In this document: positions 5,839 through 44,581 of the stretch, piece by piece
Numbering within the stretch: position 1 is the stretch's first letter
Layout: the number at the start of each line of letters is the position of its first letter
Source: Escherichia coli
GTDB lineage: Bacteria > Pseudomonadota > Gammaproteobacteria > Enterobacterales > Enterobacteriaceae
Direction: 5' to 3' (one strand)
DNA length: 64,000 bases
NCBI RefSeq assembly: GCF_003334405.1
Contig: NZ_QOWM01000005.1
Notes under the pieces: generated by a model
Seen by the model: the letters and a program-made list of their open reading frames with translations, nothing else
The model's database searches: none
What the model was told of the DNA's origin: nothing
Program-made: the position numbers and the translations under genes

Positions 5839-6489
5839 TTAATTTGATTTATTCGCATCCATCAGCGCTTTTAACTGCTCCGGCGTAAACGGTGGTTTGC
5901 GTCGGTGCAACATCGCATGGCAATTAGGGTACACAGGCAGCAAATCATTAACTGGATCCAGCTGGTAATCCTCTTTAATGGCTGACAGCGGCACCAGGTG
6001 ATGCACATGGATAAAGCCTTCAGCGATATCACCATAGATCTTCACCAGATCAACACCGCATACGTTGCACTGGCATCCATGATGTTCGACCGCTTTATCT
6101 CGGGCCTTTTTATCGCGTTCATAGCGGTTTACTGTCACCTTTATCGCCGCACCTTCAAGGTATGTCTCCTGCGACGGCAACTCATCCGGGAACAGAACGT
6201 CGGCTATGGGAGCCGCAGCGGCTTTATCCAGATGAATATGAAATCCCTGCTCTATGAGTAGCTTGACACATTTAGATTTTATTCCGCCGGTGAAATCCGC
6301 AGGGGTAAATTGCGTCCCCGTCATCAATGTCGCTGCGATGCCAGCAATCGCCTTCGAGGGGTAACGTCGGCCATGATATTCAATCTCATACAACCGCGCA
6401 GGCTGGAACTGATGAGTTTCTCCCGCATCCCATAAATGGATAGCTTCGATGATATACCGCCGCGGAAGATGATCAGGGAGTTTATTCAT
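5839..6489 (-). CDS. McrA-like HNH endonuclease (candidate modification-dependent restriction enzyme)
   Basis: 216-aa ORF; C-terminal HNH motif CQCNVCG...HVHHLVPLS...NDLLPVYPNCHAMLH; N-terminal ~100 aa unassigned putative DNA-recognition domain. Confidence 0.55.
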   Translation of the reverse strand: MNKLPDHLPRRYIIEAIHLWDAGETHQFQPARLYEIEYHGRRYPSKAIAGIAATLMTGTQFTPADFTGGIKSKCVKLLIEQGFHIHLDKAAAAPIADVLFPDELPSQETYLEGAAIKVTVNRYERDKKARDKAVEHHGCQCNVCGVDLVKIYGDIAEGFIHVHHLVPLSAIKEDYQLDPVNDLLPVYPNCHAMLHRRKPPFTPEQLKALMDANKSN

Positions 6490-7257
6490 GGAGAATGTCC
6501 TTATACGTTCTCAGAACAGGCAGCAAAAAAACAAATGAGATCAAGGTAATATATCTTCACTTGCAGGCTTGAACAGCAGAAAATTTGCGAGCATGATCGC
6601 AATTATTTCACTGCCAGGGATATCAATAGCTTCCAGTAAATCGCTACAGCAGGCAATTGCCAATATAAAAATCTGGCACAAGGGTGAACAGCGCGCGCCG
6701 CATAAGCCATTGTTATTGCTATACGTATTAGCGGGATACCTGAATGGACATCCGCGCCTTTTCGATTATTGTAGTGGAACAGTCTACGAGGATGCAGTTC
6801 GAAGTGAGTAAGTAAAGGTTGCTGGAAACGATCAATGCCGCCATACAATGATTTTTTAGGATCAACAATGAGTAATAAAAACTACGAAAGTCACCGCAAA
6901 GCGATTGTTAGTAAAGGTATACCACCCGCTCTATTAAATAGGCTCACCAATTCGGATGTTCAGGTGATCAATACCTTCTTAACACGAGTGAGCAAACTGG
7001 AACTATCTCAACAAGAGAAAGACTGGATCATAAAAATCATCTCTATGGTTTAGACAATTTCAGCCTTGTAGCCTTTCAAGGGTTTTGTGTGGGTACAAAC
7101 ATTATCGAATCGGGGTATAGCCGCAGCTGTAGCTGTATCCACATCAGTAAGTTGATGTAGGTTGACTTAGGTTGAGCGAAAAATAGCGAAAAGCCTTGTG
7201 TGGCGCGGATTTCAGTCATAAAAAAACGTCCGTTGATGTCTATTGATGTTCCGATGG

Positions 7258-7300
7258 TGCGAAGGTGCAAAGGTGCGAAGGCCGGACTCAAACATGTGAC
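7258..7300 (-). repeat. Degenerate direct repeat of the leuX tRNA 3' end (att remnant marking the distal island boundary)
   Basis: GGTGCGAAGGCCGGACTCAAAC, with an internal duplication, resembles TGGTGCCGAAGGCCGGACTCGAACC at 44497-44521; about 100 bp below it also resembles the leuX-proximal flank. Confidence 0.5.
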
Positions 7301-7770
7301 TTAACCTCATGATTTAAAATTGTTAATAATAAACAATATCATCTTATACCAACACAGATACCAACACGAAAAATCACTGGTTTTCGGCATCGAACCAGGA
7401 CAATCAGCTCCTGATTGAGATACCGAGCTCTGTTACTCGTCATCTTCCTCGACAGGCTTCATTGCATCAAGTAGTACTCGCACCATCGCGATAGAACCAA
7501 TCCGGATAAAAGCATCTTCTCCATCTATATCTGTTAACTGATATCGCTCACTTGATGCCGGATAATTGTGTCGATTTGCAGCAGTGAACTCTTTCGTACA
7601 GCCAGAATGCGGCGGATGCTGGTTGAGCAGATAACGTCCGTATTCTCGTTGACCACTTCCGGACGGTAGGCTGTGATATCAGACATAATCGATATTCCTT
7701 TTTGCAGATAAATGAAAATGCCAGCCCTGTTCAGGCTGGCGTCAGTGGAATGAAGTCTGGTGAGTAAGAC

Positions 7771-7968
7771 TCACCGGTTCTGGTGCTGAAGCTGCAGTTG
7801 GCGCAGGGTACGGATATCCTCTCTGGCCTGTTCGATACAGGGCAACAGTGCTGCTGAATCCGTTTTATCCTCATTGTTGTCAAAGATAATTCCCGATTCG
7901 CAGTCGATATTGTCCTGCAGCCACGCAATCAGAATATCCAGTGCGGTTTCCGTGGTTAATGATTTCAT
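7771..7968 (-). CDS. Small hypothetical protein of the CP4-like prophage remnant
   Basis: ORF MKSLTTETALDILIAWLQDNIDCESGIIFDNNEDK... downstream of the toxin-antitoxin cluster; no motif recognised. Confidence 0.3.
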   Translation of the reverse strand: MKSLTTETALDILIAWLQDNIDCESGIIFDNNEDKTDSAALLPCIEQAREDIRTLRQLQLQHQNR

Positions 7969-7979
7969 GTTGTTCCTGG

Positions 7980-8468
7980 TTACCAGTTGAAAGTGGGTAA
8001 ACCCGGCAGGCATTCAGCGCTGGCATCCAGATGAATGAGACTGACGCCATAACGTCGGGTAAGTGTGATAACCAGACGACGGAACGTTTTTGACAGCCCC
8101 AGGCGTTTAAGCCGCAGAACCGGATATGACCACGCATCGGTACGTAACAGATATCCGCTACCTGTGAAATGAATCCATTCTGATTCACCAACGTCACTGG
8201 TCTGATGCGACAGCGAGTACAGCCAGGCGTTATCCTTTTCCGTGATATGTGCGGTACTGCAGCGTATGCCGGCAAGGGTTGCAAACGGTGGTAGTGTGCA
8301 GGTTGACTGTTGGTCGGATTCCTCCACCACGCGGAGTGAATAACCGTTTTCAGCGACCTTGTTAATCAGTTCAGTGAGATTAACACCATCGACGTCAACG
8401 ACAATTCGCCCCATGTTCAGTGCCTGCACATTAATTCTGTCGGCTTCCAGCATCAGGGAAAGTTTCAT
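7980..8468 (-). CDS. YeeW-like hypothetical protein downstream of the CbtA-like toxin
   Basis: 162-aa ORF whose ATG overlaps the toxin gene stop (ATGA), occupying the position of the third gene in CP4-type yeeU-yeeV-yeeW clusters. Confidence 0.4.
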
Positions 8469-8839
8469 CGTTTCTCCGGATGCTTACCCAGGGTAATGTT
8501 ATTTACCGTTCTGTAATTGTCGCGGGTCATCAGGCCGGTCGCCCTGCGAGCCCGGAGGATATCAATACTGTTTATTAACTGAGAGCGGGGACAAGTGCTG
8601 AATCCCGGCTGGTCGGTACGCACCAGCGCGTATTTTTCCACGAGAAAATTCACCGCATCACACAGTGAAATGCCAGCTTCAATATGCTGCTCAATCACAC
8701 GTTCATCGGCGAACGGTGTGTCATTCAGTGTAAGGCCGTAATGCTGGCCCAGTAGTCGGGAGAGCAGAGTCTGCCAGATGGTGACGGGAGACGGGCAGCT
8801 CGATGCCTCCCGTACGTGTGTATCGGGTAATGTTTTCAT
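8465..8839 (-). CDS. CbtA/YkfI/YpjF-family toxin (type IV toxin-antitoxin, cytoskeleton-targeting)
   Basis: 124-aa ORF ...[56 protein letters not shown]... closely matching recalled CbtA-family toxins. Confidence 0.75.
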
Positions 8840-8928
8840 ACTGAAGGTTTTCCTGATATGCAGAGATGAAAAATGGAAAAGTGGCGTGGTGAAAGCACCA
8901 GGCCGGAGCAGAAGGTTATTCCGGTGGT

Positions 8929-9297
8929 TTACTTTTTCGTTTCGGGCGTCGGATAAACAGCCAGATAAACGTAACCACCGCTACCGAGAGTGTCAGCTTT
9001 GCAGGTCAGACCTTTTGCATACAGCGTGACGGTATGCTGATGGCGGGGATTCAGTTCACCGCTGGTGAGCATGAGTTCCAGTTGTTTCATCAGCAGCGGA
9101 AAGGCCTGGTCCAGGTGGTACGCATCTGCATCGCTGAACAGGCCTCTGATACCGGCGCGGTCGGCAAGGTAATGCAGGCGGTTACCCTCCTGCACCAGAC
9201 GGGCGCCGAAACAGGGCGTCACTGTGCAGGGTAGTCTCCACCAGGGATGGTCGTCATTGTCATCGGGATGCGTTGTCCCGGAAAGTGTGTCTGACAC
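8929..9297 (-). CDS. CbeA/YeeU/YfjZ-family antitoxin
   Basis: From GTG at 9295-9297: [52 protein letters not shown]...; immediately upstream of the toxin gene. Confidence 0.7.
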
Positions 9298-9459
9298 GAT
9301 AAAATCCTCACAGAAAATCGGTGAATGATAGTTTAACGATGACGGGTCAGCCGGCGCGCAGACCGGCTTCGGTAAAGGTGTATTCGTTGATGAGCAGGAC
9401 CTCATCCACAGCGGCGTCTGAGCTCAGCCAGTCGTACTCGTTTTCCGGGTGACGGAACA

Positions 9460-9678
9460 TCAGTTCAGGGTGACGCTCATCAGCCGGACATACGGACCAA
9501 AACTGTCCTTACGGCGTTCTGCAAACACGGCCAGCACACCGGGAATATCCTGCACTTCACGACCGGTATACGCTTCAGCACTGCCGTGCCAGCGGTATTT
9601 GCCGGTACAGAACGGAAAAAGACGGGATGCCGGATGCTGACGGTGAATACGCATGGCTTCGCCACGGGTGATGATTTT
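9460..9678 (-). CDS. YeeT/YkfH/YpjJ-family (DUF987-like) small protein
   Basis: 73-aa segment MKIITRGEAMRIHRQHPASRLFPFCTGKYRWHGSAEAYTGREVQDIPGVLAVFAERRKDSFGPYVRLMSVTLN, as recalled for CP4 prophage YeeT-like proteins. Confidence 0.6.
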   Translation of the reverse strand, partial: KIITRGEAMRIHRQHPASRLFPFCTGKYRWHGSAEAYTGREVQDIPGVLAVFAERRKDSFGPYVRLMSVTLN

Positions 9679-10149
9679 CATAGTGGGATACCTCTGAAGA
9701 CAGAAGATAAAAGTGAAAACAGGTGTGATGTGGTTGTGACGGGTTAAAGCAGACCATGTTCGGCAAAGGAGAAAACCTGGCTGCCACCGACTATCAGATG
9801 GTCCGGCACCCGGATAGCTGGAGGTACCGTCATGAGAGTTGAGCAGAATAATTTCAGGGACATGTTCTCCGTTTATCTCTCCGGCCCGCCGCAGACGCAG
9901 CATGTGTTTTGTGTATCCCCGGCGGCCCGGGTCGCGCACACGGGTCTGGCAGGCGAAGAATGGCTGAAAGCCTTCCCGCTGCAGGCTTTCCAGTACGGTG
10001 ATGGTGGGGATGTACGTATAGTTCTGGCTTCGGGACGTGTGTTTATCTTCCCCGAAAATCCCCGGCACATAGTGCATCAGTTCTTCGTGTGTCAGCGGAC
10101 GGTCACGGCGTATCTGGTTCGCATAACCAAAACGACTGGCTAGTCGCAT
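9679..10149 (-). pseudogene. Truncated DUF932-like (YfjQ-family) prophage gene, N-terminal fragment fused in frame to downstream sequence
   Basis: First ~110 aa MRLASRFGYANQIRRDRPLTHEELMHYVPGIFGEDKHTSRSQNYTYIPTITVLESLQREGFQPFFACQTRV...LLNSHDGTSSY match the recalled YfjQ-type N-terminus; the frame then becomes low-complexity and runs into the YeeT-like ORF. Confidence 0.4.
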
Positions 10150-10560
10150 AATTTGCTCCTTATCGGTGGTTAAGATTTACTGGTGTAATAAATGAAAAAG
10201 CCACGTCTCCCGGAGAAGACGCGGCCTGATGGGTGAAATGAATGACGTTTATTGTCTGAGAAGACCGTCACTGGCGAGCCGCGTATTAAGCACCTTTCCG
10301 GCATCGGGTTCAGAATTCCGGCAGCGCCAGCGTCGCTGACCTTCCGCGTTGCGGATAACCCGACGGAAATGCATTCCCGGGTCATCCTGGATAAACACAT
10401 TGCGGTAAGCGGTTATGACAGCAACCGCCTGCCCGTATGAGAAAGATCCTTCAGCCAGGACATACTCTGTGTAACCCGGCATATCTGTTTTCTCCTGATA
10501 AATAAAAAGCCTCTGCCACGCGTTGTGACAGAGGCTGAAGCATGAAACTGACTTCAGGGA

Positions 10561-11016
10561 TCAGTTAACGTTTTTTCCGGAAACGGTAATCAGCAGTGGA
10601 TGGTAGTCCTGGGGATTGAAAACCGATAACGGCAGACTGACACGATGGCCGTTACTTTCTTCAGTTGCTTTGATGATTTCGGTTGTGGCGACATTTTCCA
10701 CGCACTCCGTTTCCAGAAATGCGTCTGTGGTTCGCGTGGCATTACTGTCACCAAAAGCTTCCGTTTCCATTTTTCTGGTCACCAGCGTCTGACCATATTT
10801 GTCTTTGAGTTGCAGAGTGATGGTGAGGGGGCCAAATCCTTCATCGTTTCCGCCATTATCCAGCCGGAACTGGTAAGCACAAATATTTCCCGGGAGCCAT
10901 ATCGTATCTGTATTGCGTATACTGATGTAACGTTGATCCTGTGCCCGGAGTGGGGCAGACCACGTTAACCCCAGAATGAAGGCGGTAATCATGCAGGTTT
11001 TGAACAGGTGAATCAT
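10561..11016 (-). CDS. Hypothetical secreted protein (signal peptide)
   Basis: 151-aa ORF with hydrophobic N-terminal MITAFILGLTWSAPLRA followed by a polar domain; no motif recognised. Confidence 0.4.
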   Translation of the reverse strand: MIHLFKTCMITAFILGLTWSAPLRAQDQRYISIRNTDTIWLPGNICAYQFRLDNGGNDEGFGPLTITLQLKDKYGQTLVTRKMETEAFGDSNATRTTDAFLETECVENVATTEIIKATEESNGHRVSLPLSVFNPQDYHPLLITVSGKNVN

Positions 11017-11091
11017 GGTATTTACCTCTCTGAGTCATGACGATGACACTGACAAATCAGGTGATAAAGCGTAAAAGGCGCAGAATAGCCG

Positions 11092-13068
11092 TTATGCCGG
11101 TAACTCCGGGGGTAATGCTTCTTCCAGTCGGTTAACCATATTGCCGAGATGGGATGCATCATATTCCATGACGGGGCGTTGCCTGATGATACTGACCACC
11201 AGTGGTTTGATTAACATATTGGTCGCGGCCCGTTGTTGTATACCGGCGGCGAAAATGATCTCCAGAGCATTCTGATCGATAACACGGGCCAGATTCTCGT
11301 TCAGATTTTCAATCTCATGTCCGGTCAGCAGGAAACTGCCGGCAAGCCATGTCACCTGCTCCTGAATCATTGCCAGAATTTTGACGCGATCTTCTTCAAC
11401 CAGCGCTCCGGCAATTTTTCCTGATACAGCGGAGGCAATCATTCCCCCCAGAACACCGCCAACCACACGCCCTGTCAGTGCACCAAATGGTCCCAGTGGA
11501 CTGAACAGTATTCCGCCCGCCACTGACCCGACAGCACCACCTGCCACACCGGAAGATGCCACGGCAAGATTCCTGATGAACTGCGTACCGGAGATCCGTC
11601 CCCGCAACATTTTGATCATGTCAGGGCCGGTTGTGACAGCTACCAGTGCCAGAGATGTCACCAGCGTACCCTTCATCACTTTGTTCAGGGCACTGATATT
11701 TCCTGCACCGGTCCCCTTCTGAAGAGCCAGTCGAACAGTCGGGCTGGCAGTCGAAAAATCAATGTGCTTCAGCATACCCTGAACAACACTGAGCCGGTGG
11801 AGTTGCTGGGTTGTGACGTAGACAGCCAGTGTGCGGGTGAAGGTTTTTCCTGCCTGGACAGCAGCTGTCTGCAGGGCAGCATCGCGATCGCCGGTGCTGA
11901 GCCAGAAGACCGATGCCGTCAGGGCAAAACTGATCCCTCCGGCCGCCAGACTGACAACCGAACCCTCGGCAATATCATAAGTGACCGATTCGATGGTCCC
12001 GAACCGGGTGATATTACGGGCCTGAGTATAAGTCAGATGAGCCATACACGCGGCTTCCGTTATTCTGCCGGATTCGTATAACGCCCGGTAACCACCGTAA
12101 GCATCGGCCTGAAGCACACCGCTGTAACCGGCCAGGTGATTTTGTGGATGGATACCTTTCCGGTCCGGACTGTACGCGAACCAGACCGCCGGGGGCATCT
12201 GTGAACCGGCGTTACGGTCATCACGGACGTAGACCCACAGCCGGGCTGTCCGGGTTTTACCGCTGCCCGGCTCCTGGACCGGGACGGGGATATCATCAGC
12301 ATGGACTTTACCGGGCATCAGCACATACTGGCGCAGGACGTCATACAGCGGCTCCAGCAGTTCAGCAACAGCACCTGTCCAGCGCCCCAGTGTGGCACGG
12401 CTCAGCTCCACTCCCTGACGACGGTATATTTCTGACTGGCGGTATAACGGCAGATGGTCTGCATATTTCCCGGTGACAACATGGGCCAGAAGCCCCGCTC
12501 CGGCATAACTGCGTGCAATGGGTTTTGAAGGTACTGGTGCCTGCACGATATGGTCGCACCGGCAACAGGCCTGTTTCGGACGTTGTGTTTCGATAACCTT
12601 AAAGGCGCTGCTGATAAGCTCCAGTTGCTCTGACACATCACATCCCAGAGAACTGAGTTCACCACCACAGGCAGGACAGCATTCCTCTTCCGGCCGGATA
12701 ACCCGGGTTTCACGGGGAAGTGAGGCCGGTAACGGTTTACGGGCTGAAGACTGGCGCAGGGCGGATGGCAGTACCGGGTCATATTGCTCACCCAGCGTTT
12801 CCGCCATTTCTTCCTGAAGTGCGCTGATTCGCTCCTGTGCTTCCTGTATCTGCCGTTCGGTTTTTGCACGAAGTTTTTCTGAGCTTTTACCGAACTGCAT
12901 ACGTTGCAGTTTCGCAACCAGCGCCTTCAGCCGGTTGATTTCGGAAGCATAAGCCGCCACCCGCTGTGAGAGCAGGCGGTTGTATTCAGCCATCTGGCGG
13001 ATGGTGTCCTGTTGCGTCTGCAACAGTGCCCGCAGGCGGGCGTTCTCATGAGCAAGTGAGGTGTCCAT
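11092..13068 (-). pseudogene. Chimeric ORF: IS66-family TnpC (N-terminal ~340 aa) fused in frame to a glycine-rich C-terminal fragment of an unrelated protein
   Basis: N-terminal part has IS66 transposase hallmarks ([37 protein letters not shown]); after ...EAACMAHL the sequence diverges from the second TnpC copy at 14392-15777. Confidence 0.6.
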
Positions 13069-13087
13069 ATCCTCACTTTACAACGGG

Positions 13088-13435
13088 TTATATGCGGATT
13101 CCAGCGCGTTCCGTTCGTTTCGGGTGCTTCCAGTTGATACCTTCAAGAAGCATGGATAACTGAGCCGGAGTAAGGTGCACCTTGCCGTCACGGGTGACTG
13201 GCCAGACGAAGCGGCCCCGCTCCAGGCGTTTGGTGAAGAGGCACAGTCCGTCACTGTCAGCCCACAACACTTTTATCTGGTCACCCCGGCGTCCGCGGAA
13301 GATGAACAGGTGTCCGGAGAACGGGTCATCCTTCAGGACGTTCTGAACTTTTGATGCCAGGCCGTTAAAGCCATTTCGCATATCGGTGATACCTGCAACC
13401 AGCCAGATACGCGAACCTGCAGGGAGAGATATCAT
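13088..13435 (-). CDS. IS66-family accessory protein TnpB (Orf2)
   Basis: 115-aa ORF MISLPAGSRIWLVAGITDMRNGFNGLASKVQ...; paralogous to the plus-strand copy at 13995-14342. Confidence 0.8.
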   Translation of the reverse strand: MISLPAGSRIWLVAGITDMRNGFNGLASKVQNVLKDDPFSGHLFIFRGRRGDQIKVLWADSDGLCLFTKRLERGRFVWPVTRDGKVHLTPAQLSMLLEGINWKHPKRTERAGIRI

Positions 13436-13926
13436 CAGTGGCTGCTCCCTTTTATTTCGCGGATAAGTGTCTGTAATAACGCCGGCGTCAGTTTACCTTT
13501 AAGCCTGAGAGTTCCGGCCGGCAGAACCAGCTCACAACACAGACTGTCGGACGGTGTATTTATCTGCTCTGGTTCCTGTGCGGGGGCCGGGATTTTATTA
13601 TCCGGCTCCGGCGTTAACGTCACGGGAAGCAGTGCCGGCATATTTTTTCCGGAAGGCAGCAGGCCACCTTTCCGGTATTGATGGCGCCAGTTGAAGAGCA
13701 GGTTATCGTTGATTCCGTTTTCCCGGGCGATCTGCGCCACACAGGCTCCGGGCTGCAGTGACTGCTCCACTAAGGCGATTTTAAACTCATAAGGGAAGTT
13801 GGGCCGCCGGGGACGTTTTTTTACCACGGGGGCTTCGGATATAACGGTGCTTTCAGGACGTACGACTGGTACCGTGGAAAATTGTCCGTAACCCTCAGTA
13901 TCAGCTGTGAGGTAACGTTCCGGCAC
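13435..13926 (-). CDS. IS66-family TnpA (Orf1)
   Basis: 163-aa ORF immediately upstream of and overlapping tnpB, the typical IS66 three-ORF arrangement. Confidence 0.65.
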   Translation of the reverse strand: MPERYLTADTEGYGQFSTVPVVRPESTVISEAPVVKKRPRRPNFPYEFKIALVEQSLQPGACVAQIARENGINDNLLFNWRHQYRKGGLLPSGKNMPALLPVTLTPEPDNKIPAPAQEPEQINTPSDSLCCELVLPAGTLRLKGKLTPALLQTLIREIKGSSH

Positions 13927-13994
13927 GGGACGCTCCGCTTCAATGGCAATGTCAGCGAAAAGCTCCTGACTCTGCTGATACAGGAACTGAAGCG

Positions 13995-14342
13995 ATGATC
14001 CCGTTACCTTCCGGGACCAAAATTTGGCTGGTTGCCGGTATCACCGATATGAGAAATGGCTTCAACGGCCTGGCTGCGAAAGTACAAACGGCGCTGAAAG
14101 ACGATCCCATGTCCGGCCATGTTTTCATTTTCCGGGGCCGCAGCGGCAGTCAGGTTAAACTGCTGTGGTCCACCGGTGACGGACTGTGCCTCCTGACCAA
14201 ACGGCTGGAGCGTGGGCGCTTCGCCTGGCCGTCAGCCCGTGATGGCAAAGTGTTCCTTACGCAGGCGCAGCTGGCGATGCTGCTGGAAGGTATCGACTGG
14301 CGACAGCCCAAGCGGCTGCTGACCTCCCTGACCATGCTGTAA
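13995..14342 (+). CDS. IS66-family accessory protein TnpB (Orf2), second copy
   Basis: 115-aa ORF MIPLPSGTKIWLVAGITDMRNGFNGLAAKVQ... Confidence 0.8.
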   Translation: MIPLPSGTKIWLVAGITDMRNGFNGLAAKVQTALKDDPMSGHVFIFRGRSGSQVKLLWSTGDGLCLLTKRLERGRFAWPSARDGKVFLTQAQLAMLLEGIDWRQPKRLLTSLTML

Positions 14343-14391
14343 ATCTCTTTATCCTGGTTGTCACAGAATAAGCCCGGTAAAATACGGGCTT

Positions 14392-15777
14392 ATGAACGAC
14401 ATCTCTTCTGACGACATCTTCCTGCTAAAACAGCGCCTGGCCGAACAGGAAGCGCTGATCCACGCCCTGCAGGAAAAGCTGAGCAACCGGGAGCGCGAAA
14501 TAGACCATCTGCAGGCGCAGCTGGATAAACTCCGCCGGATGAACTTCGGCAGTCGTTCCGAAAAAGTCTCCCGCCGTATCGCACAAATGGAAGCCGATCT
14601 GAACCGGCTTCAGAAAGAGAGCGATACGCTGACTGGTAGGGTGTATGACCCGGCAGTACAGCGTCCGTTGCGTCAGACCCGCACCCGTAAGCCGTTCCCT
14701 GAATCACTACCCCGTGACGAAAAGCGACTGTTGCCTGCGGCGCCGTGCTGCCCGAACTGCGGCGGTTCACTGAGCTATCTGGGCGAGGATACCGCCGAAC
14801 AGCTGGAGTTGATGCGTAGCGCATTCCGGGTTATCCGGACGGTACGGGAAAAACATGCCTGTACTCAGTGCGATGCCATCGTGCAGGCACCTGCACCTTC
14901 GCGGCCCATCGAGCGGGGTATCGCCGGACCGGGGCTGCTGGCCCGCGTGCTGACCTCGAAGTATGCAGAGCACACCCCGCTGTATTGCCAGTCAGAAATA
15001 TACGGCCGGCAAGGTGTGGAGCTGAGCCGTTCACTGCTGTCAGGCTGGGTGGATGCATGCTGCCGGCTGCTGTCTCCGCTGGAAGAGGCGCTTCATGGCT
15101 ATGTCATGACTGACGGCAAACTCCATGCCGATGATACCCCGGTCCAGGTACTGCTGCCGGGTAATAAGAAGACGAGGACCGGGCGGTTGTGGGCGTATGT
15201 TCGTGATGACCGCAATGCCGGGTCAGCGTTGGCACCTGCAGTGTGGTTCGCTTACAGCCCGGACAGAAAAGGCATCCATCCGCAGACTCATCTTGCTTGC
15301 TTCAGCGGTGTGCTGCAAGCGGATGCGTACGCCGGGTTCAACGAGCTGTATCGCAATGGTGGGATAACGGAAGCTGCCTGCTGGGCTCATGCCCGCCGAA
15401 AGATCCACGATGTGCACGTCCGCATCCCGTCAGCACTGACGGAAGAAGCCCTGGAGCAGATCGGTCAGTTGTACGCCATAGAGGCGGATATAAGGGGAAT
15501 GCCGGCAGAGCAGCGGCTTGCTGAACGTCAGCGAAAAACGAAACCGCTGTTGAAATCCCTGGAAAGCTGGTTGCGTGAAAAGATGAAGACCCTGTTCTTC
15601 GGCTCTGGCCATGGTGGTGAGCGGGGAGCGCTACTGTACAGCCTGATCGGGACGTGCAAACTGAATGACGTGGATCCAGAAAGCTACCTTCGCCATGTGC
15701 CTGGCGTCATAGCAGACTGGCCGGTCAACCGGGTCAGCGAACTGCTTCCGTGGCGCATAGCACTGCCAGCTGAATAA
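14392..15777 (+). CDS. IS66-family transposase TnpC, second copy (apparently full length)
   Basis: 461-aa ORF with MNFGSRSEKV, CCPNCGGSL, HADDTPVQVL, LWAYVRDDR, EAACWAHARRK motifs. Confidence 0.8.
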   Translation: MNDISSDDIFLLKQRLAEQEALIHALQEKLSNREREIDHLQAQLDKLRRMNFGSRSEKVSRRIAQMEADLNRLQKESDTLTGRVYDPAVQRPLRQTRTRKPFPESLPRDEKRLLPAAPCCPNCGGSLSYLGEDTAEQLELMRSAFRVIRTVREKHACTQCDAIVQAPAPSRPIERGIAGPGLLARVLTSKYAEHTPLYCQSEIYGRQGVELSRSLLSGWVDACCRLLSPLEEALHGYVMTDGKLHADDTPVQVLLPGNKKTRTGRLWAYVRDDRNAGSALAPAVWFAYSPDRKGIHPQTHLACFSGVLQADAYAGFNELYRNGGITEAACWAHARRKIHDVHVRIPSALTEEALEQIGQLYAIEADIRGMPAEQRLAERQRKTKPLLKSLESWLREKMKTLFFGSGHGGERGALLYSLIGTCKLNDVDPESYLRHVPGVIADWPVNRVSELLPWRIALPAE

Positions 15778-26837: not shown

Positions 26838-27935
26838 ATGGATTACAGCATGGCTAGTGTTGATGCAGATTACTGCTACTCGTTTCCGGCTATACGTGGC
26901 ATTCAGGCTGGTCGCCCTTTCTATATCGCCACATGCCCGATGCGTATCATCCCGAAAATATTCAGTTTTGATGAAAATGATGTGCCACCGGAATTACGCG
27001 CACAGCGCACGCTAAATAAATCGCGCATTCCCGAGATGGTACGTTATTTGTTGGAAAACCCTAAAGATTATGTGTTTTCAGCTCTGACGGCTTCCATTGC
27101 CGTAGACGTTCAATTTGATGAGTTTCCAGGTTCTAACAATCTGGGGACGTTGTGCGTACCAATGGATGCGCAAATTCTAATCAATGATGGACAACATCGC
27201 CGTAAAGCGATTGAAGACGCTTTAGACGCTCGTCCGGAGCTGGGCCAGGATAATATCCCGGTGTTGTTCTTTGTCGATGAAGGCTTAAAGCGTAGCCAGC
27301 AGATGTTCGCCGATCTGAATAAATACGCCATTCGCCCCAGCCCATCGCTGGCGTCGCTATACGATCATCGCGATGCCTGTTCGAATCTGGCGCGTTATCT
27401 GGCAATGTCAGTAGAGCCGTTTGTTGGGATGACGGAACTGGAAAAATCTGGCATTAGCCAGAGGTCGAATAAGCTATTTACGTTGAGCAGCATCAAGCAG
27501 GCTACCCGCGCATTGTTGGGCAAAGATCCCAAAGAGGATAACTTTGAGGAATGCACCCACATTGCTACCCAATATTGGCAGGCTATTTTTAGTGTAATGC
27601 CTGATTGGCAATTAGCGGCTAAAAAGGAAGTTTCACCGGTTCAATTGCGACAAGATTATGTTCACGCTCATGGCATTGGATTGCAGGCACTTGGGCAACT
27701 AGGATATACCCTGCTGACGGATTATCCTGAGCAATGGCCGGAGAAAATCGCTGCACTCAAAACATTTAACTGGCGTAGAAACAATCCGGACCTCATCAAG
27801 CGAGCGATGCAGCATGGGAAGTTGAGTAAAACCAGTACCGCGATCCAGTTAACCTGCAATGCGCTAAAAACCGCACTCTCAATTCCCCTCACTCCTGAAG
27901 AACAGGAGCTTGAAGCTCAAATGGTTGTCTCATGA
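26838..27935 (+). CDS. dndB: DNA phosphorothioation regulator DndB (DGQHR domain)
   Basis: 365-aa ORF containing the DGQHR motif (INDGQHRRKAI); first gene of a dndBCDE-ordered cluster. Confidence 0.85.
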   Translation: MDYSMASVDADYCYSFPAIRGIQAGRPFYIATCPMRIIPKIFSFDENDVPPELRAQRTLNKSRIPEMVRYLLENPKDYVFSALTASIAVDVQFDEFPGSNNLGTLCVPMDAQILINDGQHRRKAIEDALDARPELGQDNIPVLFFVDEGLKRSQQMFADLNKYAIRPSPSLASLYDHRDACSNLARYLAMSVEPFVGMTELEKSGISQRSNKLFTLSSIKQATRALLGKDPKEDNFEECTHIATQYWQAIFSVMPDWQLAAKKEVSPVQLRQDYVHAHGIGLQALGQLGYTLLTDYPEQWPEKIAALKTFNWRRNNPDLIKRAMQHGKLSKTSTAIQLTCNALKTALSIPLTPEEQELEAQMVVS

Positions 27936-29554
27936 GTAAATTAGTTCAGGCCTATGATTTGGCCGAATACGAAGATTTTATTAATCAGGAACAGTTCGCC
28001 GGACGTCCTCTGGCCGAATATGTTGCTGAGGTTCAACGAATTTATTGTGCGGATAAACGTCCGTGGGTGATTGGCTACAGCGGTGGGAAAGATTCTTCCG
28101 CTGTGATCACGCTGGTGTATCTGGCCTTGCTCGGCCTGCCCCCGGAAATGCGCAGCAAAGATATTTTTGTGGTGTCGTCCGATACGCTGGTCGAAACACC
28201 GGTAGTCGTGGATCTGATTAAGAAAACGATGTTGCAGATTGAGGCGGGAGCGAAGCGTAACGGCTTGCCGATCACTCAACACGCGGTAACGCCTAAAACG
28301 AATGAAACCTTCTGGGTCAATTTGCTGGGGAAAGGTTATCCGGCTCCAACTCGTAGTTTCCGTTGGTGCACTGAGCGCATGAAAATCAACCCGGTGAGTG
28401 ACTTTATTAAAGATAAGGTCAGCCAGTTTGATGAAGTCATCGTCGTACTTGGTTCGCGCAGTAGTGAAAGTGCTTCTCGTGCGCAGGTGATCGCAAAGCA
28501 CAAGATTGATGGATCACGCCTTGCCCGGCATACCACGCTGGCAAATGCATTCATCTATACCCCCATTGATACCTGGGATGTAGAAGATGTCTGGAAGCTG
28601 CTGCGGGGCGCGTTCCGCTATGCCCCTGAAGATATCGACGAGTGGGAAAGCCCGTGGGGTGGAAACAACCGTCCACTGTGGACGTTGTATATGGATTCTT
28701 CCGCACAGGGTGAATGTCCTCTGGTAATTGATGATAGTACCCCTTCCTGCGGCAACTCGCGTTTTGGCTGTTGGACCTGTACCGTTGTCACTAAAGATAA
28801 GGCGATGGAAAGCCTGATCAAAAACGGTGAAGAATGGATGTCTCCGTTGCTGAAATATCGTGATCTGCTGGCATTTACCACCGATCCGGTGAATAAAGAC
28901 ACGTTTCGAAACTATAAGCGCCGTACTGGTAAGGTGAGCTATCAGTACGCTAAAGAAAGTGATGAGCCGGGGGCTGAGCGTAAGCATGTTCCAGGTCCTT
29001 ACTGGCTAAAATACCGTCAGCAATGGCTCAAAGAATTGCTGGAGATAGAGCGCGATTTGAATGCTCAAGGCCATACCATTACGTTAATTACCAAACCAGA
29101 GCTGCATGCGATTCGTCAGGAGTGGTTGAAAGATCCTAATGAACCAGACTGGTATGACACGCTGCCGGGTATTTACCGTGAAGTGTATCAACAGGATTTA
29201 GACTGGGTGGTGGACGATCAGTCGCGCTTTGATGCCAGCGATGCAGATCTGTTGGTGCAGATAGCGCAGGGATTTGACGTTGTGCCTGAAATGGTGATGA
29301 AACTCATCGAGCTGGAAGTTTCAATGGAAGGCTTAAGCCGTCGTCAGGGCATTTTTGACAAACTTGGCACGATTTTAAAGCAGGACTGGGGCACTCTCGA
29401 AGAAATTGAACAACAACAGGTCACTCTGCAAAAACGAGTTGAACGAGATATTCATCAGGAAGAACTTACAAAGCTGGAAACTGAACTTCAGGTTTTACAG
29501 CGCAGAATTGTTGATGCCAGTGAATCCTCGTTACTGATTGGGGAGGAGAAATAA
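27932..29554 (+). CDS. dndC: DNA phosphorothioation protein DndC (PAPS reductase-like PP-loop ATP pyrophosphatase)
   Basis: 540-aa ORF with PP-loop SGGKDS (IGYSGGKDSSAV) and conserved Cys cluster; overlaps the dndB stop. Confidence 0.85.
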   Translation: MSKLVQAYDLAEYEDFINQEQFAGRPLAEYVAEVQRIYCADKRPWVIGYSGGKDSSAVITLVYLALLGLPPEMRSKDIFVVSSDTLVETPVVVDLIKKTMLQIEAGAKRNGLPITQHAVTPKTNETFWVNLLGKGYPAPTRSFRWCTERMKINPVSDFIKDKVSQFDEVIVVLGSRSSESASRAQVIAKHKIDGSRLARHTTLANAFIYTPIDTWDVEDVWKLLRGAFRYAPEDIDEWESPWGGNNRPLWTLYMDSSAQGECPLVIDDSTPSCGNSRFGCWTCTVVTKDKAMESLIKNGEEWMSPLLKYRDLLAFTTDPVNKDTFRNYKRRTGKVSYQYAKESDEPGAERKHVPGPYWLKYRQQWLKELLEIERDLNAQGHTITLITKPELHAIRQEWLKDPNEPDWYDTLPGIYREVYQQDLDWVVDDQSRFDASDADLLVQIAQGFDVVPEMVMKLIELEVSMEGLSRRQGIFDKLGTILKQDWGTLEEIEQQQVTLQKRVERDIHQEELTKLETELQVLQRRIVDASESSLLIGEEK

Positions 29555-29555
29555 C

Positions 29556-31556
29556 GTGCTCATTAAACAGCTGGTATTACATAATTTTCGGGTATTTAAC
29601 GGTACACATACCATTGATCTGGCACCCAGAAAGCGTCCGCACGATTTGAATCCACGACCTATTGTGCTGTTTGGTGGTTTAAACGGCGCAGGGAAAACGT
29701 CTATCCTGTCGGCGATCCGCATAGCGTTGTATGGACGACTGGCGTTTGGGCTAGCGACTCAACAGCAAGAGTATATCGAACAACTCAGTGCATTGATTCA
29801 TAACGGCGCGTACTATATTGAGCAGCCGGAAGAAGCATCTGTAGAACTGACGTTTACCTATAATAAAGGCGGTCATGAGGCCGAATTTACCGTTACGCGA
29901 ACCTGGAAAAAGGGGAAGAGGGACCGCCTTTCTCTGCAACAGGATGGGCAGCCACTCAGTGAGCTGGATTACGATCAGTGCCAGGGATTTCTAAATGAGT
30001 TAATTCCGCATGGCATTGCTGATTTGTTCTTTTTCGATGGCGAGAAAATTGCAGAACTTGCTGAGGACGAATCCGGTAATATTTTACGTACTGCCGTACG
30101 ACGCTTATTGGGGCTGGATCTCATCTCTAAACTGCGTAACGATTTAATGATTTTTGTTAAGCGTCAGCAATCCAGCCAGCTAGCAAGTTCTCAGCAACAA
30201 CAGATTGCAGAGCTTGAAAAACAGAGTAAAGAATTAGCCTGCCAGACAGAAGCACTGCTGGAAAGCGCCGATTTTGCCAAATCGCGGATTGAGTTTCTAT
30301 CTAAAGATATAACCCATTATGAAGGCTTGCTAAATGCTCAGGGGGGCGCTTTTGCCCAGACTAAAGCGCAGGAAAAACAGAAAGTCGAAACGCTGCTAAA
30401 AGATAAAGAACATCTGGAAAAAGCACTGAGACAAGAATGCGATGGCTCGCTACCTTATGCGCTTGCGCCCACTATTTTGTCTCATTTGCTGCAACAAATT
30501 GCTGATGAAACGCAAATTAAACAGGCAAAAAGCTTTGAAAAAGAGCTGAGCCAGTTTTTAACGCAACTCAGAAATGATATTGCATTTCGTTCTGCGGGGA
30601 CTGGCAAAATAGCAGCTGAAGCGATTACCGATAATCTAAAAGATTATATGGCAACGAAACCAAAAGGTGATTTGCTCTTTGATATCTCTGAGCGTGAAGC
30701 AGGTATGCTTCAACAGTCTATTGAGATAGATAGTAAAAGAGCATGGCAGCGTTTCGAGCTTTATCGCACACAGTTATCTGAGATTGAACAACAGTTAGAA
30801 CAAGCGGCTGCTAATATTGCCCGCGCTCCTGAAGATGAGCAGCTGATGGATCTCTTTGAAAAATTACGTGACCTGGATAGGCAGCGCGAAGCCCAATTGC
30901 AGAAATATCGGTCATTGCTAGAAGATGCTAAACGTAAAAAACAGCAGCAACTGGATTGTGTTCGTCAGATTCAAAAAGCGCATGACGCCGCTCGTTATCA
31001 GCACAGTTATAGCAGTGCGTTTAAGAATGCTCAGGAAACGATAAATTTACTCGATCGCTACAGCGATGTATTAACCCAGGCTCGGGTAAAAACGCTGTCG
31101 ACAAACTTCGAGCTTGCTTACCGTAAGTTGGCTCGCAAAGAGGATTTACAACTTAGTGCGCATATCAACCCTCAAACGTTTGATGTTGAATTAATTGATG
31201 AGAATGGCTCAGTAATTAACCGTAAGTTACTTTCTGCTGGTGAAAAACAGATTTATGCAATTGCTATTCTTGAGGCGCTGGCGAAAACCTCTGGCCGTGA
31301 TTTACCAGTGATCATTGATACACCATTGGGTCGTCTGGACTCTCAACATCGAGATAAATTGATTAATCACTACTTCCCTGAAGCCAGTCATCAGGTTGTG
31401 TTGCTTTCTACCGATACTGAAGTAGATGAACGTTATTTTGTTGATCAGTTGCGTGATGATATCTCTCATGCTTATGAGATTGTGTTTAATGCACATACTA
31501 AGTCATCAACGCTGAAGCCTGGTTATTTCTGGGAATTAACTAAGGAGGCTATCTGA
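29556..31556 (+). CDS. dndD: DNA phosphorothioation SMC-like ATPase DndD
   Basis: Walker A GGLNGAGKTS, long central coiled-coil, C-terminal signature/Walker B region; likely start GTG 29556 after GGAGGAG, whereas the ORF track uses TTG 29538. Confidence 0.85.
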   Translation: MLIKQLVLHNFRVFNGTHTIDLAPRKRPHDLNPRPIVLFGGLNGAGKTSILSAIRIALYGRLAFGLATQQQEYIEQLSALIHNGAYYIEQPEEASVELTFTYNKGGHEAEFTVTRTWKKGKRDRLSLQQDGQPLSELDYDQCQGFLNELIPHGIADLFFFDGEKIAELAEDESGNILRTAVRRLLGLDLISKLRNDLMIFVKRQQSSQLASSQQQQIAELEKQSKELACQTEALLESADFAKSRIEFLSKDITHYEGLLNAQGGAFAQTKAQEKQKVETLLKDKEHLEKALRQECDGSLPYALAPTILSHLLQQIADETQIKQAKSFEKELSQFLTQLRNDIAFRSAGTGKIAAEAITDNLKDYMATKPKGDLLFDISEREAGMLQQSIEIDSKRAWQRFELYRTQLSEIEQQLEQAAANIARAPEDEQLMDLFEKLRDLDRQREAQLQKYRSLLEDAKRKKQQQLDCVRQIQKAHDAARYQHSYSSAFKNAQETINLLDRYSDVLTQARVKTLSTNFELAYRKLARKEDLQLSAHINPQTFDVELIDENGSVINRKLLSAGEKQIYAIAILEALAKTSGRDLPVIIDTPLGRLDSQHRDKLINHYFPEASHQVVLLSTDTEVDERYFVDQLRDDISHAYEIVFNAHTKSSTLKPGYFWELTKEAI

Positions 31557-31909
31557 TGCTCCCGAATCGAATGGCGCTTAGCCGTCAGACTGAAGATCAG
31601 CTTAAAAAGCTTAAAGGGTATACTGGGATTACACCCAATATTGCTGCCCGGCTAGCATTTTTCCGCTCGGTGGAGAGTGAGTTTCGCTATTCACCTGAAC
31701 GAGATAGTAAGAAGCTGGATGGTACGCTGGTGCTGGATAAAATTACGTGGCTGGGGGAGACACTACAAGCTACAGAATTGGTGCTGAAGATGCTTTATCC
31801 ACAATTAGAGCAAAAGGCGTTGATTAAGGCATGGGCTGCTCATGTTGAGGATGGGATTGCGGCATTGAGAAATCATAAAAGTTTAATTAGCTTATTAAAT
31901 GCTATATAA
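31556..31909 (+). CDS. dndE: DNA phosphorothioation protein DndE
   Basis: 117-aa ORF overlapping the dndD stop; size and position fit DndE. Confidence 0.8.
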   Translation: MLPNRMALSRQTEDQLKKLKGYTGITPNIAARLAFFRSVESEFRYSPERDSKKLDGTLVLDKITWLGETLQATELVLKMLYPQLEQKALIKAWAAHVEDGIAALRNHKSLISLLNAI

Positions 31910-31950
31910 AACATTTAAATTTATTGGTATGACCTTTTGTTTTCAACCTA

Positions 31951-31986
31951 AAACCACCTCCTAGGGAGGTGGTGATTGAGTTTTAT
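31951..31986. terminator. Bidirectional stem-loop terminator between convergent dndE and the ATPase gene
   Basis: Perfect palindrome CCACCTCC-CTAGG-GAGGTGG at 31954-31973 with an A-rich tract upstream and TTTT downstream. Confidence 0.5.
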
Positions 31987-31991
31987 AATTG

Positions 31992-33155
31992 TCATATTGC
32001 TAATTTTAAAATTAATTCACCGGCATCAGGCGAATGTATCAGCGTAGCTAAATGTGAACCACACTTGCAAGAATTGAAGTTGCTGTCCACTTTAAATTTA
32101 AAGCGTCCGTTAGCAACCTCAGCATATCGGTAATTTTCATTCTCACTTTTCTCTTTTAGTTCGATCCTGAATTCATTATTGATATTTTCTAAGCAATATA
32201 AGAATTTTTCTATCTCATATTCGTTAGTTTCAATCCAAAGAGCAATTGCAAAACCCTTTAAGGTAGATAAATGCTTATCCGATAAGATTTTAGACAGCTC
32301 AATGAAAAAATCATGATGATCACAAGTCATAGCATCGAACTCGCCCTCAAGATAATCGGCATCCACGCCTAATTTTGCAGCATAAGCCTGAATGTTATTT
32401 TTTATACACTCTATAACTTCTGCTTCTGGTGGTAAATTATTTTCTGAGGGTAGGAAAACATTTTTAATACAATCTGAATTTATTCCTCTGCTTTTAACTT
32501 GATCGGCATCGTAAACAGATACTATGTTCAGGCCAGAGCTATCTTTATAATGCTCAGATACTTTTTGTATATTAGATTCACCTTGTAGATTATGTAAGTA
32601 ACATGTAGAGTAAAGATGTGTGTTTTTTATTTTTAAGATATATTCAAGTACAAGTTTTGCAAAGTCATCCTCTATCAGGAAAATATTTTTCCTTTCAGGA
32701 GCTAAACCCAGTGCATTGAAATATCTATAATTATATCCACAATTTGATATGGTATATTTTTTGCCTTTTTTAGCTAAGACTAATACTGAGTTTAAGCCTT
32801 GAGGGCTGAGTATGTGTTCAGAGTGAGTAGCCATCAAAACATTTAATTTTTTAGTATCGATTGTGTAGGCTAAAAAATCCATGAAATTTTTCTGGCTTAC
32901 CGGGCAAATAAAACTCTCTGGCTCTTCAATGAAGAGGATTGAATTTTTTTCCGTATAAATAAGTTTCCAGATTGCTATAAGTAACTTATGTTCTCCTTGC
33001 CCCATACTCTCTGACGTATAAACTATATTACTGTTAACCTCTTTAACCTCAAAGTATGGGAAAGTTAAATCATCAATAATTCCTTCTACCTCATTAACTT
33101 TTACATACTCATATTTCTTGCCTGTGATTTTCTGAACAAAAAAAAAGATTTTCAT
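31992..33155 (-). CDS. ABC/OLD-like ATPase, C-terminal part (Walker B, H-loop and TOPRIM-like region); separated from its N-terminal part by a frameshift
   Basis: 387-aa ORF with LFIEEPESF (Walker B-like), MATHSEHIL, and a TOPRIM-like IFLIEDDF ... YDAD; begins with ATG directly abutting the T9 tract. Confidence 0.6.
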   Translation of the reverse strand: MKIFFFVQKITGKKYEYVKVNEVEGIIDDLTFPYFEVKEVNSNIVYTSESMGQGEHKLLIAIWKLIYTEKNSILFIEEPESFICPVSQKNFMDFLAYTIDTKKLNVLMATHSEHILSPQGLNSVLVLAKKGKKYTISNCGYNYRYFNALGLAPERKNIFLIEDDFAKLVLEYILKIKNTHLYSTCYLHNLQGESNIQKVSEHYKDSSGLNIVSVYDADQVKSRGINSDCIKNVFLPSENNLPPEAEVIECIKNNIQAYAAKLGVDADYLEGEFDAMTCDHHDFFIELSKILSDKHLSTLKGFAIALWIETNEYEIEKFLYCLENINNEFRIELKEKSENENYRYAEVANGRFKFKVDSNFNSCKCGSHLATLIHSPDAGELILKLAI

Positions 33156-41165: not shown

Positions 41166-41169
41166 GATG

Positions 41170-44297: not shown

Positions 44298-44496
44298 AAA
44301 AGTTCTCCTTCCATGTGCCGCTGTGAGTATACAACCATTATCGAACCAGCATATATACTCGGTTCTATACTCACAAGCGACTTGATGTGGGTTGACTCAG
44401 ATTGACTTCTGTTGAAAGGAAAATCGCGGAAGGCCTTGTATGACGGGGATTTCAGGCATAAAAAAAGACCTCAGTTGAGGTCCATTTACATGCTTT

Positions 44497-44581
44497 TGGT
44501 GCCGAAGGCCGGACTCGAACCGGCACGTATTTCTACGGTTGATTTTGAATCAACTGCGTCTACCGATTTCGCCACTTCGGC
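44497..44581 (-). tRNA. leuX: tRNA-Leu (CAA anticodon), leuX
   Basis: Reverse complement reads GCCGAAGTGGCGAAATCGGTAGACGCAGTTGATTCAAAATCAACCGTAGAAATACGTGCCGGTTCGAGTCCGGCCTTCGGCACCA, 85 nt with CAA anticodon, long variable arm and encoded CCA. Confidence 0.9.

Follow-up and report, generated by a model that had tools for sequence, protein, structure and literature searches.

Gene content of the interval

Within the window, a 64,000-nt stretch of an Escherichia coli contig (NZ_QOWM01000005.1), the interval 7771-10149 holds a toxin-antitoxin block beside a truncated and fused DUF932 gene, and all genes of the interval lie on the minus strand. Their order is a DUF932'-DUF987 fusion ORF, a CbeA/YeeU-family antitoxin, a CbtA-family toxin, a DUF5983/YeeW-like gene, and a gene that RefSeq names DUF957. 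The features of the block and its borders are listed below, with positions given in the window.

10198..10227, minus strand: terminator-like hairpin after the DUF905 gene, just upstream of the DUF932 remnant
9460..10149, minus strand: chimeric 229-aa ORF, made up of DUF932(1-111), 45 further residues, and the whole of DUF987
9460..9681, minus strand: DUF987/YeeT-like gene, 73 aa, intact and with its own ATG, 100% identical to WP_000692345.1
8929..9297, minus strand: CbeA/YeeU-family type IV antitoxin, 122 aa, carrying G21R, with GTG as start codon and GAGGA as Shine-Dalgarno sequence
8465..8839, minus strand: CbtA-family toxin, 124 aa, with Cys15 and Phe65 (Pfam CbtA_toxin, PF06755)
8465..8468, minus strand: ATGA, in which the toxin gene ends and the DUF5983 gene begins, read directly (tcat in the letters of the window)
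7980..8468, minus strand: DUF5983/YeeW-like gene, 162 aa, full length (precomputed Pfam matches PF25638 and PF19419, and alignment)
7771..7968, minus strand: 65-aa gene with the RefSeq name DUF957, identical to WP_000839281.1
7720..7740, minus strand: terminator-like hairpin with a T run behind it, at the end of the gene block
7537..7686, minus strand: DUF4942 gene remnant, a RefSeq pseudogene at the matching positions in O26 and FDAARGOS_1077

The presence of a toxin-antitoxin block next to a truncated, fused DUF932 gene, as reported in the initial annotation, was confirmed from the ORFs and their Pfam matches. The gene identities and order given there are correct, and the ATGA coupling between the toxin and the next gene is real; the part of its interpretation that invoked a prophage, decay, and addiction is overstated or lacks support. 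It had also treated the YeeT-like gene and the fused DUF932 gene as two things, which are in fact the same ORF (9460..10149). The 65-aa 'DUF957' gene, which likewise lies inside the interval, was missing from that annotation.

No families were returned when the eight small ORFs were scanned against NCBIfam; their identities were therefore assigned from Pfam, from the way RefSeq annotates identical sequences, and from pairwise identity values. The DUF987/YeeT-like protein, for example, is 97% identical to K-12 YeeT, 67% to YkfH, and 59% to YpjJ. The 65-aa 'DUF957' protein found no Pfam-A match even at E<=10 in our own scan, so the name comes from RefSeq alone. Nothing in Rfam matched positions 6500-14500 at E<=0.01, no second copy of the toxin-antitoxin genes was found within the window, and a simple consensus scan of the coding strand detected no sigma-70-like promoter. 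The hairpin at 10198..10227 presumably bounds the transcription unit, and the genes between the two terminator-like hairpins are probably co-transcribed.

The same block occurs in 5,006 of 5,426 complete E. coli genomes (roughly nine in ten), at a median of three copies. It is among the commonest E. coli accessory sets, and the K-12 version of its toxin-antitoxin pair has long been characterised. The block described here is ordinary, and just two things set it apart from its relatives, a recent 1.4-kb deletion and a rare antitoxin residue.

A recent 1,445-bp deletion and the DUF932-DUF987 fusion

Three features mark the scar.

9817..10149, minus strand: DUF932 gene remnant, the N-terminal 111 of 272 codons (Pfam DUF932; O26:H11 WP_001234622.1)
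9815..9816, no strand: junction of the 1,445-bp deletion, located by a local blastn comparison of the window with two intact loci, L001 and L008
9744..9816, minus strand: last 73 nt of a RadC/YeeS-like JAB gene, whose native frame ends in FAEHGLL and a stop

The DUF932 remnant is identical to its O26:H11 counterpart as far as the breakpoint, and the JAB remnant corresponds to positions 8245-8317 of L001, within the annotated JAB gene, and is read out of frame by the chimeric ORF. In the chimeric product, residues 36-112 match positions 1-78 of 227 of the Pfam DUF932 model (E 1e-18) and residues 157-221 cover the DUF987 model in full (1-65 of 65, E 3.5e-39), while the 45 residues between the two parts derive from junction, out-of-frame, and intergenic sequence. 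The C-terminus of DUF932, a whole ArdB-like antirestriction gene, and all of the RadC/JAB gene save its last 73 nt were lost. Microhomology of 2 bp (TA) is found at the junction, within an imperfect repeat of ~16 nt common to both parent sites. The deletion very probably formed by illegitimate recombination at this imperfect short repeat, and it is by chance that DUF932(1-111) ended up in frame with DUF987. The DUF932-like gene is, as initially described, both truncated and fused, and one 1,445-bp deletion accounts for this.

The intact form of the locus is found at the same chromosomal position in FDAARGOS_1077, B7A, and O26:H11 11368, with 0 to 3 mismatches over ~12 kb. These relatives share the neighbours nanC-nanM-nanS, an HNH gene, the DUF4942 remnant, DUF905, and IrmA with the window, but keep the 1,445 bp that encode the DUF932 C-terminus, the antirestriction protein, and the JAB protein. 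When aligned with FDAARGOS_1077, one flank of the junction (9,816 nt) differs at three positions and the other (2,225 nt) at none. The exact junction was found in none of the 5,426 complete E. coli genomes, and the exact 229-aa chimeric protein is on record on only three to five contigs. The deletion is rare and recent, at the level of the strain, and its exact junction could serve as a lineage marker.

Because the module is present in several copies in most genomes, it invites misassembly, and the fusion might be ascribed to a collapse between paralogous copies. However, an identical 40-nt junction and the same 229-aa ORF appear both in an NCBI assembly (on a 166-kb contig) and in an independent Logan assembly of run ERR3469010, both flanks align to a single locus in relatives, and complete genomes contain comparable deletions. 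An assembly artefact is extremely improbable and was rejected, as the junction is common to independent assemblies.

Strains B-1109 and ET82 also carry a truncated DUF932 joined to the end of JAB directly upstream of DUF987, as in the window, with breakpoints 8-25 bp from those seen here. Their backbone, however, is paralogous (82-91% identity across the junction) and their junction sequence differs; the deletions are therefore separate events. At least two independent events (that of the window and that of B-1109/ET82) have thus placed breakpoints a few bases apart in different paralogous islands.

The leuX island

The wider setting of the block is defined by the following features.

44497..44581, minus strand: tRNA-Leu(CAA) (leuX), the island insertion site, detected with ARAGORN
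43029-44297: P4-type integrase ORF, 422 aa, adjoining leuX (NCBIfam integrase domain, E 1.7e-83; the match of 281 bits lies below the curated cut-off of 434 of the NCBIfam model)
7272..7293, plus strand: degenerate copy of the tRNA-Leu(CAA) 3' end, with a 14-nt exact repeat core

Beyond this core, the degenerate att copy agrees with the tRNA at 21 of 23 positions when one gap is allowed, and it is likely the distal (attR) boundary of the island. The island spans ~37 kb; besides an apparently intact integrase gene, it encodes DndBCD/DptFGH and carries fec genes. The block makes up the attR-proximal part of this leuX island and is not a decayed prophage. Indeed, a search of 50,697 phage records recovered the block just once, in a 3.2-kb fragment that bears no annotation. 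The term 'prophage remnant' used in the initial annotation reflects a K-12 naming convention only, as the block forms the distal end of the tRNA-Leu(CAA) island. Nor is the module otherwise decayed, as had been proposed: DUF905, IrmA, DUF987, DUF5983, and 'DUF957' are identical to those of intact relatives, and all damage inside the interval is explained by the one rare, recent deletion. The truncation of DUF4942 is older and common to the intact relatives.

The locus is thus very probably a conserved attR-proximal block of a P4-integrase-type leuX island that has suffered one recent 1,445-bp deletion and whose toxin-antitoxin pair was left untouched. In its full form, the block comprises DUF932, the ArdB-like antirestriction gene, RadC/JAB, DUF987, antitoxin, toxin, DUF5983, 'DUF957', and DUF4942.

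Paralogous islands consistently link CbtA/CbeA with genes for ArdB-like antirestriction and RadC/JAB proteins, which could point to another role: the block might not be an addiction module but a cassette that serves a transferable element in establishment or anti-defence (Iyer et al.). Antirestriction and RadC would act on entry, CbtA would transiently delay division until the element has settled, and CbeA would serve as the brake. This proposal, however, draws purely on gene context, no transfer genes of the island were found within the window, and a cassette of this kind would be crippled in the present copy, where the antirestriction and RadC genes are lost. We consider it unlikely.

The toxin-antitoxin pair and the question of its retention

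Both members of the pair belong to well-defined families. Residues 1-112 of the toxin cover the PF06755 model completely (1-112 of 112, E 1.1e-61), and residues 18-117 of the antitoxin cover positions 1-100 of 101 of CbeA_antitoxin, PF06154 (E 1.3e-52); the antitoxin also matches the sequence of the YeeU crystal structure, PDB 2H28 (E 4.7e-75). The toxin is 100% identical to the RefSeq protein WP_000854753.1, and the antitoxin is 100% identical to WP_021542768.1 and 99-100% identical to the RefSeq proteins of intact copies. Alignment with the K-12 paralogues, which had been put forward as a check, places the pair with CP4-44 (toxin 88% identical to CbtA, antitoxin 92% to CbeA), whereas the CP4-6 and CP4-57 pairs reach only 59-64%: the toxin is 59% identical to YkfI and 63% to YpjF, and the antitoxin 61% to YafW and 64% to YfjZ.

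The CbtA/CbeA (YeeV/YeeU) pair of CP4-44 belongs to the same Pfam families at full length, shows the same gene order (yeeT-cbeA-cbtA-yeeW), and keeps Phe65. In the window, the antitoxin gene directly precedes the toxin gene in the same orientation, and the gap between them is 89 nt, as compared with 88 nt in CP4-44. The two loci differ in toxin residue 15 (Cys here, Arg in K-12), in antitoxin residue 21 (Arg here, Gly in K-12), in the downstream DUF5983 gene (162 aa here, the 64-aa stub YeeW in K-12), and in the element itself, a leuX island with an integrase as opposed to the integrase-less CP4-44. YkfI/YafW (CP4-6) and YpjF/YfjZ (CP4-57) are of the same families, carry Cys15, and are preceded by antirestriction, RadC/JAB, and DUF987 genes, but have a 20-nt gap, shorter N- and C-termini, and no downstream DUF5983 gene.

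By homology to K-12 CbtA, the 124-aa toxin would block cell division through FtsZ binding, and may also block elongation through MreB. The 122-aa antitoxin would neutralise it indirectly, by bundling FtsZ and MreB polymers, which is the type IV mechanism described for CbtA/CbeA (PMC5624674; PMC5371832). Phe65, a determinant of the interaction of CbtA with FtsZ (PMC5624674), is present in the window toxin and invariant in a five-sequence toxin alignment. Arg15, the MreB-interaction determinant of K-12 CbtA, is absent and replaced by Cys15, a residue that the same alignment also places in YkfI, YpjF, and the O26 copy. In K-12 CbtA, the R15C substitution abolished MreB binding and left toxicity in place, and YpjF, which naturally has Cys15, still binds MreB (PMC5624674). 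Because Arg15 is not conserved in the family and a Cys15 toxin binds MreB, this residue is a peculiarity of K-12 CbtA and not a true hallmark of the family. A common island-borne toxin allele thus naturally carries Cys15 at the position that separates MreB from FtsZ binding in K-12 CbtA.

The pair had been described as intact and as retained by addiction or for island stabilisation. It is intact in that both frames are open and full length, although the antitoxin carries G21R at a conserved glycine. Toxin-antitoxin loci of other mobile elements are known stabilisers. Selective retention in a decaying module, through post-segregational killing or stabilisation of the island, could also be read from the two intact ORFs beside a deletion scar and from their position near the att end of the island. 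A single, rare, and very recent deletion, however, has left no time for differential decay, and the remaining genes of the block are intact too. Moreover, genomes carry a median of three copies of the block, and in B-1109 and strain 3908 the toxin is disrupted or truncated while the antitoxin is intact. Work in K-12 points the same way: the three antitoxin genes can be deleted, paralogous antitoxins cross-neutralise, and the toxin-antitoxin genes are weakly transcribed from an operon without autoregulation (PMC5371832), all of which weakens the case for addiction. Retention by addiction is quite unlikely and finds no support at this locus. Because the deletion is so recent, survival of the pair is uninformative on selective retention, and an intact pair next to a strain-level scar of this age is no evidence of addiction.

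The G21R substitution sits in the conserved WWGL motif of the antitoxin. Of 115 cluster representatives, 109 (95%) have Gly21, as do CbeA, YafW, and YfjZ; it is also the residue of the O26 copy, whereas FDAARGOS_1077 has Arg, as here. Perfect matches to the R allele are seen in 13 complete genomes and to the G allele in 1,794; R21 occurs in ~0.6% of complete genomes with this allele type.

It is conceivable, though improbable, that the pair is weakened, with G21R impairing the antitoxin and/or the Cys15 toxin acting on FtsZ only, and that it persists solely because its native expression is too low to matter. The conservation of Gly21 and the rarity of the R allele would fit such a scenario, as would the loss of MreB binding in CbtA R15C (PMC5624674) and the tolerance of K-12 to antitoxin deletion, through which a dead antitoxin could persist (PMC5371832). 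On the other hand, the exact R21 protein has been recorded on at least 1,000 contigs as well as in 13 complete genomes, and it lies beside an unchanged toxin at every inspected locus. The AlphaFold2 model of the antitoxin is of moderate quality (mean pLDDT 68), and residue 21 falls ahead of the first predicted strand, in a low-confidence N-terminal segment (residues 1-26, pLDDT <50). Finally, Cys15 is the state of YkfI, YpjF, and O26, of which YpjF binds MreB, and CbtA-R15C is itself toxic.

It is very unlikely that the block carries a deletion hot-spot or, alternatively, that the Cys15 toxin and Arg21 antitoxin form a functionally shifted pair. A hot-spot could reflect repeated selection for loss of the ArdB-like and RadC genes with retention of DUF987-CbeA-CbtA, and a shifted pair could involve, for example, a toxin acting through FtsZ only. 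The conserved island block with an untouched toxin-antitoxin pair remains the preferred reading, and the rare G21R allele at a conserved glycine is a minor point worth keeping.

A single deletion in an otherwise intact block

All genes of the interval 7771-10149 lie on the minus strand, and Pfam matches far beyond chance bear out the gene assignments of the initial annotation.

Genes and signals of the block
10227..10198, minus: terminator-like hairpin on the other flank of the block
10149..9460, minus: 229-aa ORF, a DUF932-DUF987 chimera (Pfam: residues 36-112 match positions 1-78 of the 227-position DUF932 model; residues 157-221 cover the DUF987 model in full)
9297..8929, minus: 122-aa ORF, antitoxin, GTG start with GAGGA ahead (Pfam CbeA_antitoxin, 100/101 model positions, E 1.3e-52)
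8839..8465, minus: 124-aa ORF, toxin (Pfam CbtA_toxin, full model, E 1.1e-61)
8468..7980, minus: 162-aa ORF, DUF5983 (precomputed Pfam match for the same protein)
7968..7771, minus: 65-aa ORF, RefSeq name 'DUF957 domain-containing'
7740..7720, minus: terminator-like hairpin at the 3' end of the block

The proposed coupling of the toxin to the following gene is also present: tcat at window 8465-8468 reads ATGA on the coding strand, and thus the toxin stop overlaps the start of the DUF5983 ORF. The 65-aa protein had no Pfam-A match in the current library, so its DUF957 label was not reproducible here. Because the two hairpins bracket the block, a single transcription unit is suggested by prediction; no promoter was identified.

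When 5,426 complete E. coli genomes were searched by megablast with window positions 7500-10400, 5,006 carried the block (median of three copies per genome); the best matches have approximately 100% identity but are split in two and span 4,346 bp rather than 2,901 bp. In E. coli O26:H11 11368 and FDAARGOS_1077, the intact order is DUF932 (272 aa), antirestriction, JAB/RadC-like, DUF987, YeeU-family antitoxin, CbtA-family toxin, DUF5983, DUF957, and a DUF4942 remnant. Local blastn placed the breakpoint at window 9815/9816, with 1,445 bp missing and 2 bp common to both sides; 111 DUF932 codons and the final 73 nt of JAB are left. This JAB remnant is out of frame in the chimeric ORF (the native frame ends ...FAEHGLL*), which crosses the intergenic region and by chance meets the ATG of DUF987 in the same frame. 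The "decayed" DUF932 gene is therefore the product of one deletion; it is indeed truncated and fused, as initially described, but the rest of the module is intact, and the description "otherwise decayed" does not apply. Both parent sites contain a version of one imperfect repeat (CCGGCAcC-CgGaTA versus CCGGCAgCatCtGgTA), which suggests illegitimate recombination at a short stretch of homology.

None of the 5,426 complete genomes showed the same join when searched with a 200-nt probe spanning the junction, and the exact 229-aa product is recorded on only 3-5 contigs. These include NCBI assembly GCA_024592625.1 (a 166-kb contig) and an independent Logan assembly, whose identical 40-nt junctions show that the deletion is real. 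Outside the deleted segment, only three of 9,816 bases, and none of the next 2,225, differ between the window and FDAARGOS_1077, indicating a very recent event. Separate, similar deletions occur in B-1109 (L002, 3945-4250), ET82 (L011, 2475-2680), IPCEC31 (L010), and strain 3908 (L009), where a truncated DUF932 gene runs into JAB or into just its final bases. In B-1109 and ET82, which have a different paralogous backbone, the breakpoints lie within 8-25 bp of that of the window, suggesting a recombination-prone spot at an imperfect short repeat.

Toxin and antitoxin alleles

The likeness to K-12 paralogues that had been perceived by eye holds in alignment. The toxin is 100% identical to WP_000854753.1, and shares 88% identity with CbtA, 59% with YkfI, and 63% with YpjF. 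It retains Phe65; in each of the three K-12 toxins, FtsZ binding is lost when this residue is changed (F65S; PMC5624674). Residue 15 is Cys (codon 15, window 8797 region). In K-12 CbtA, R15C abolishes the two-hybrid interaction with MreB and yields filaments in place of lemon-shaped cells while toxicity is kept; Cys15 is natural in YkfI and YpjF, the latter of which nevertheless binds MreB (PMC5624674). Cys15 is thus not inactivating, and the MreB arm of this allele's activity is a prediction. In this widespread island-borne toxin allele, the native residue 15 is the one that uncouples MreB binding from FtsZ binding when introduced into K-12 CbtA.

The antitoxin matches WP_021542768.1 from FDAARGOS_1077 at 100% identity (CbeA, 92%; YafW, 61%; YfjZ, 64%). 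One caveat concerns a conserved Gly: relative to the O26 copy, a one-base difference at window 9237 produces G21R within the WWGL motif, a column with Gly in 109 and Arg in three of 115 aligned cluster representatives. Complete genomes with a perfect match to a 61-nt probe around this base number 13 for the R allele and 1,794 for the G allele, and the exact R21 protein occurs on at least 1,000 contigs of a large collection; G21R is a minority lineage allele rather than a private lesion. The AlphaFold2 model (mean pLDDT 68) falls below 50 at residues 1-26, before the first strand, and cannot settle the effect of G21R. Because K-12 tolerates deletion of its antitoxin genes (PMC5371832), the persistence of R21 beside an intact toxin is no proof of antitoxin function.

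By homology, the toxin would bind the FtsZ H6/H7 loop, and might also bind MreB on its flat face, blocking division and perhaps elongation; the antitoxin would bundle the cytoskeletal polymers without binding the toxin, a type IV mechanism. None of the genes upstream (antirestriction, RadC, and DUF987) neutralises the toxin in K-12 (PMC5371832), and loss of two of them here should not unbalance the pair. The initial annotation suggested retention of the pair by addiction or for island stabilisation. Retention by addiction is not supported, given an otherwise intact module, a lone and recent lesion, and family properties that oppose strong addiction: weak transcription, no autoregulation, and cross-neutralisation by paralogous antitoxins at the K-12 loci (PMC5371832). 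A possible role in establishment or division delay on incoming elements (PMC5512222) is a contextual alternative.

The leuX island and its neighbours

Landmarks of the island
44497-44581: tRNA-Leu(CAA) (leuX)
43029-44297: 422-aa integrase ORF adjoining tRNA-Leu(CAA)
7272-7293: degenerate copy of the tRNA 3' end

After the integrase come DptF/DptG/DptH, an NsnA-like and AAA ATPase pair, DndB/DndC/DndD, fecR/A/B/C/E, and IS66 remnants, followed by IrmA, DUF905, and the CbeA/CbtA block. Together with the tRNA landmarks, this order places the block at the attR-proximal end of a ~37-kb leuX island of the type found in E. coli B7A, the top match of the block megablast among 5,426 complete genomes. 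The P4-like integrase is the reason why K-12 elements of this kind are named cryptic prophages or phage-like elements. Out of 50,697 phage records, only one has the block, and it is a 3.2-kb fragment; 17 plasmid records out of 72,556 have it, and several of these are chromosome-sized. The module, the toxin-antitoxin family, and the kind of island are all already known; the strain-specific details are the rare 1,445-bp deletion, an antitoxin with the minority G21R allele, and a toxin with the common Cys15 allele.

What looks like a complete DNA phosphorothioation system (26838-42819; DndB/DndC/DndD on the plus strand, DptF/DptG/DptH on the minus strand) immediately adjoins the leuX integrase, an arrangement shared with E. 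coli B7A. Between its dnd and dpt genes, two minus-strand ORFs (31992-34799; NsnA/PD-T4-2_A-like and an NsnB/HEC-04/GajA-type AAA ATPase) are a possible second defence pair within the Dnd island. Just outside this island, which makes phosphorothioated DNA, an intact 216-aa HNH endonuclease gene (5839-6775; precomputed ScoMcrA_N match) adjoins a remnant annotated in RefSeq as a phosphorothioated-DNA-binding restriction endonuclease; conflict between a PT-dependent nuclease and Dnd modification would be expected.

A 658-aa chimeric ORF (11092-13068) marks another island rearrangement: its N-terminal ~345 residues are an IS66-family transposase, and the remainder comes from the C-terminal portion of the large hypothetical gene preceding IrmA in relatives. 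Approximately 60 nt to the left of the degenerate tRNA-Leu 3'-end copy also resemble the flank of the real tRNA (7200-7293 versus 44441-44521; GGATTTCAG.CATAAAAAAA...), and by this resemblance 7200-7293 looks like the original end of the tRNA, displaced together with the region downstream of it.
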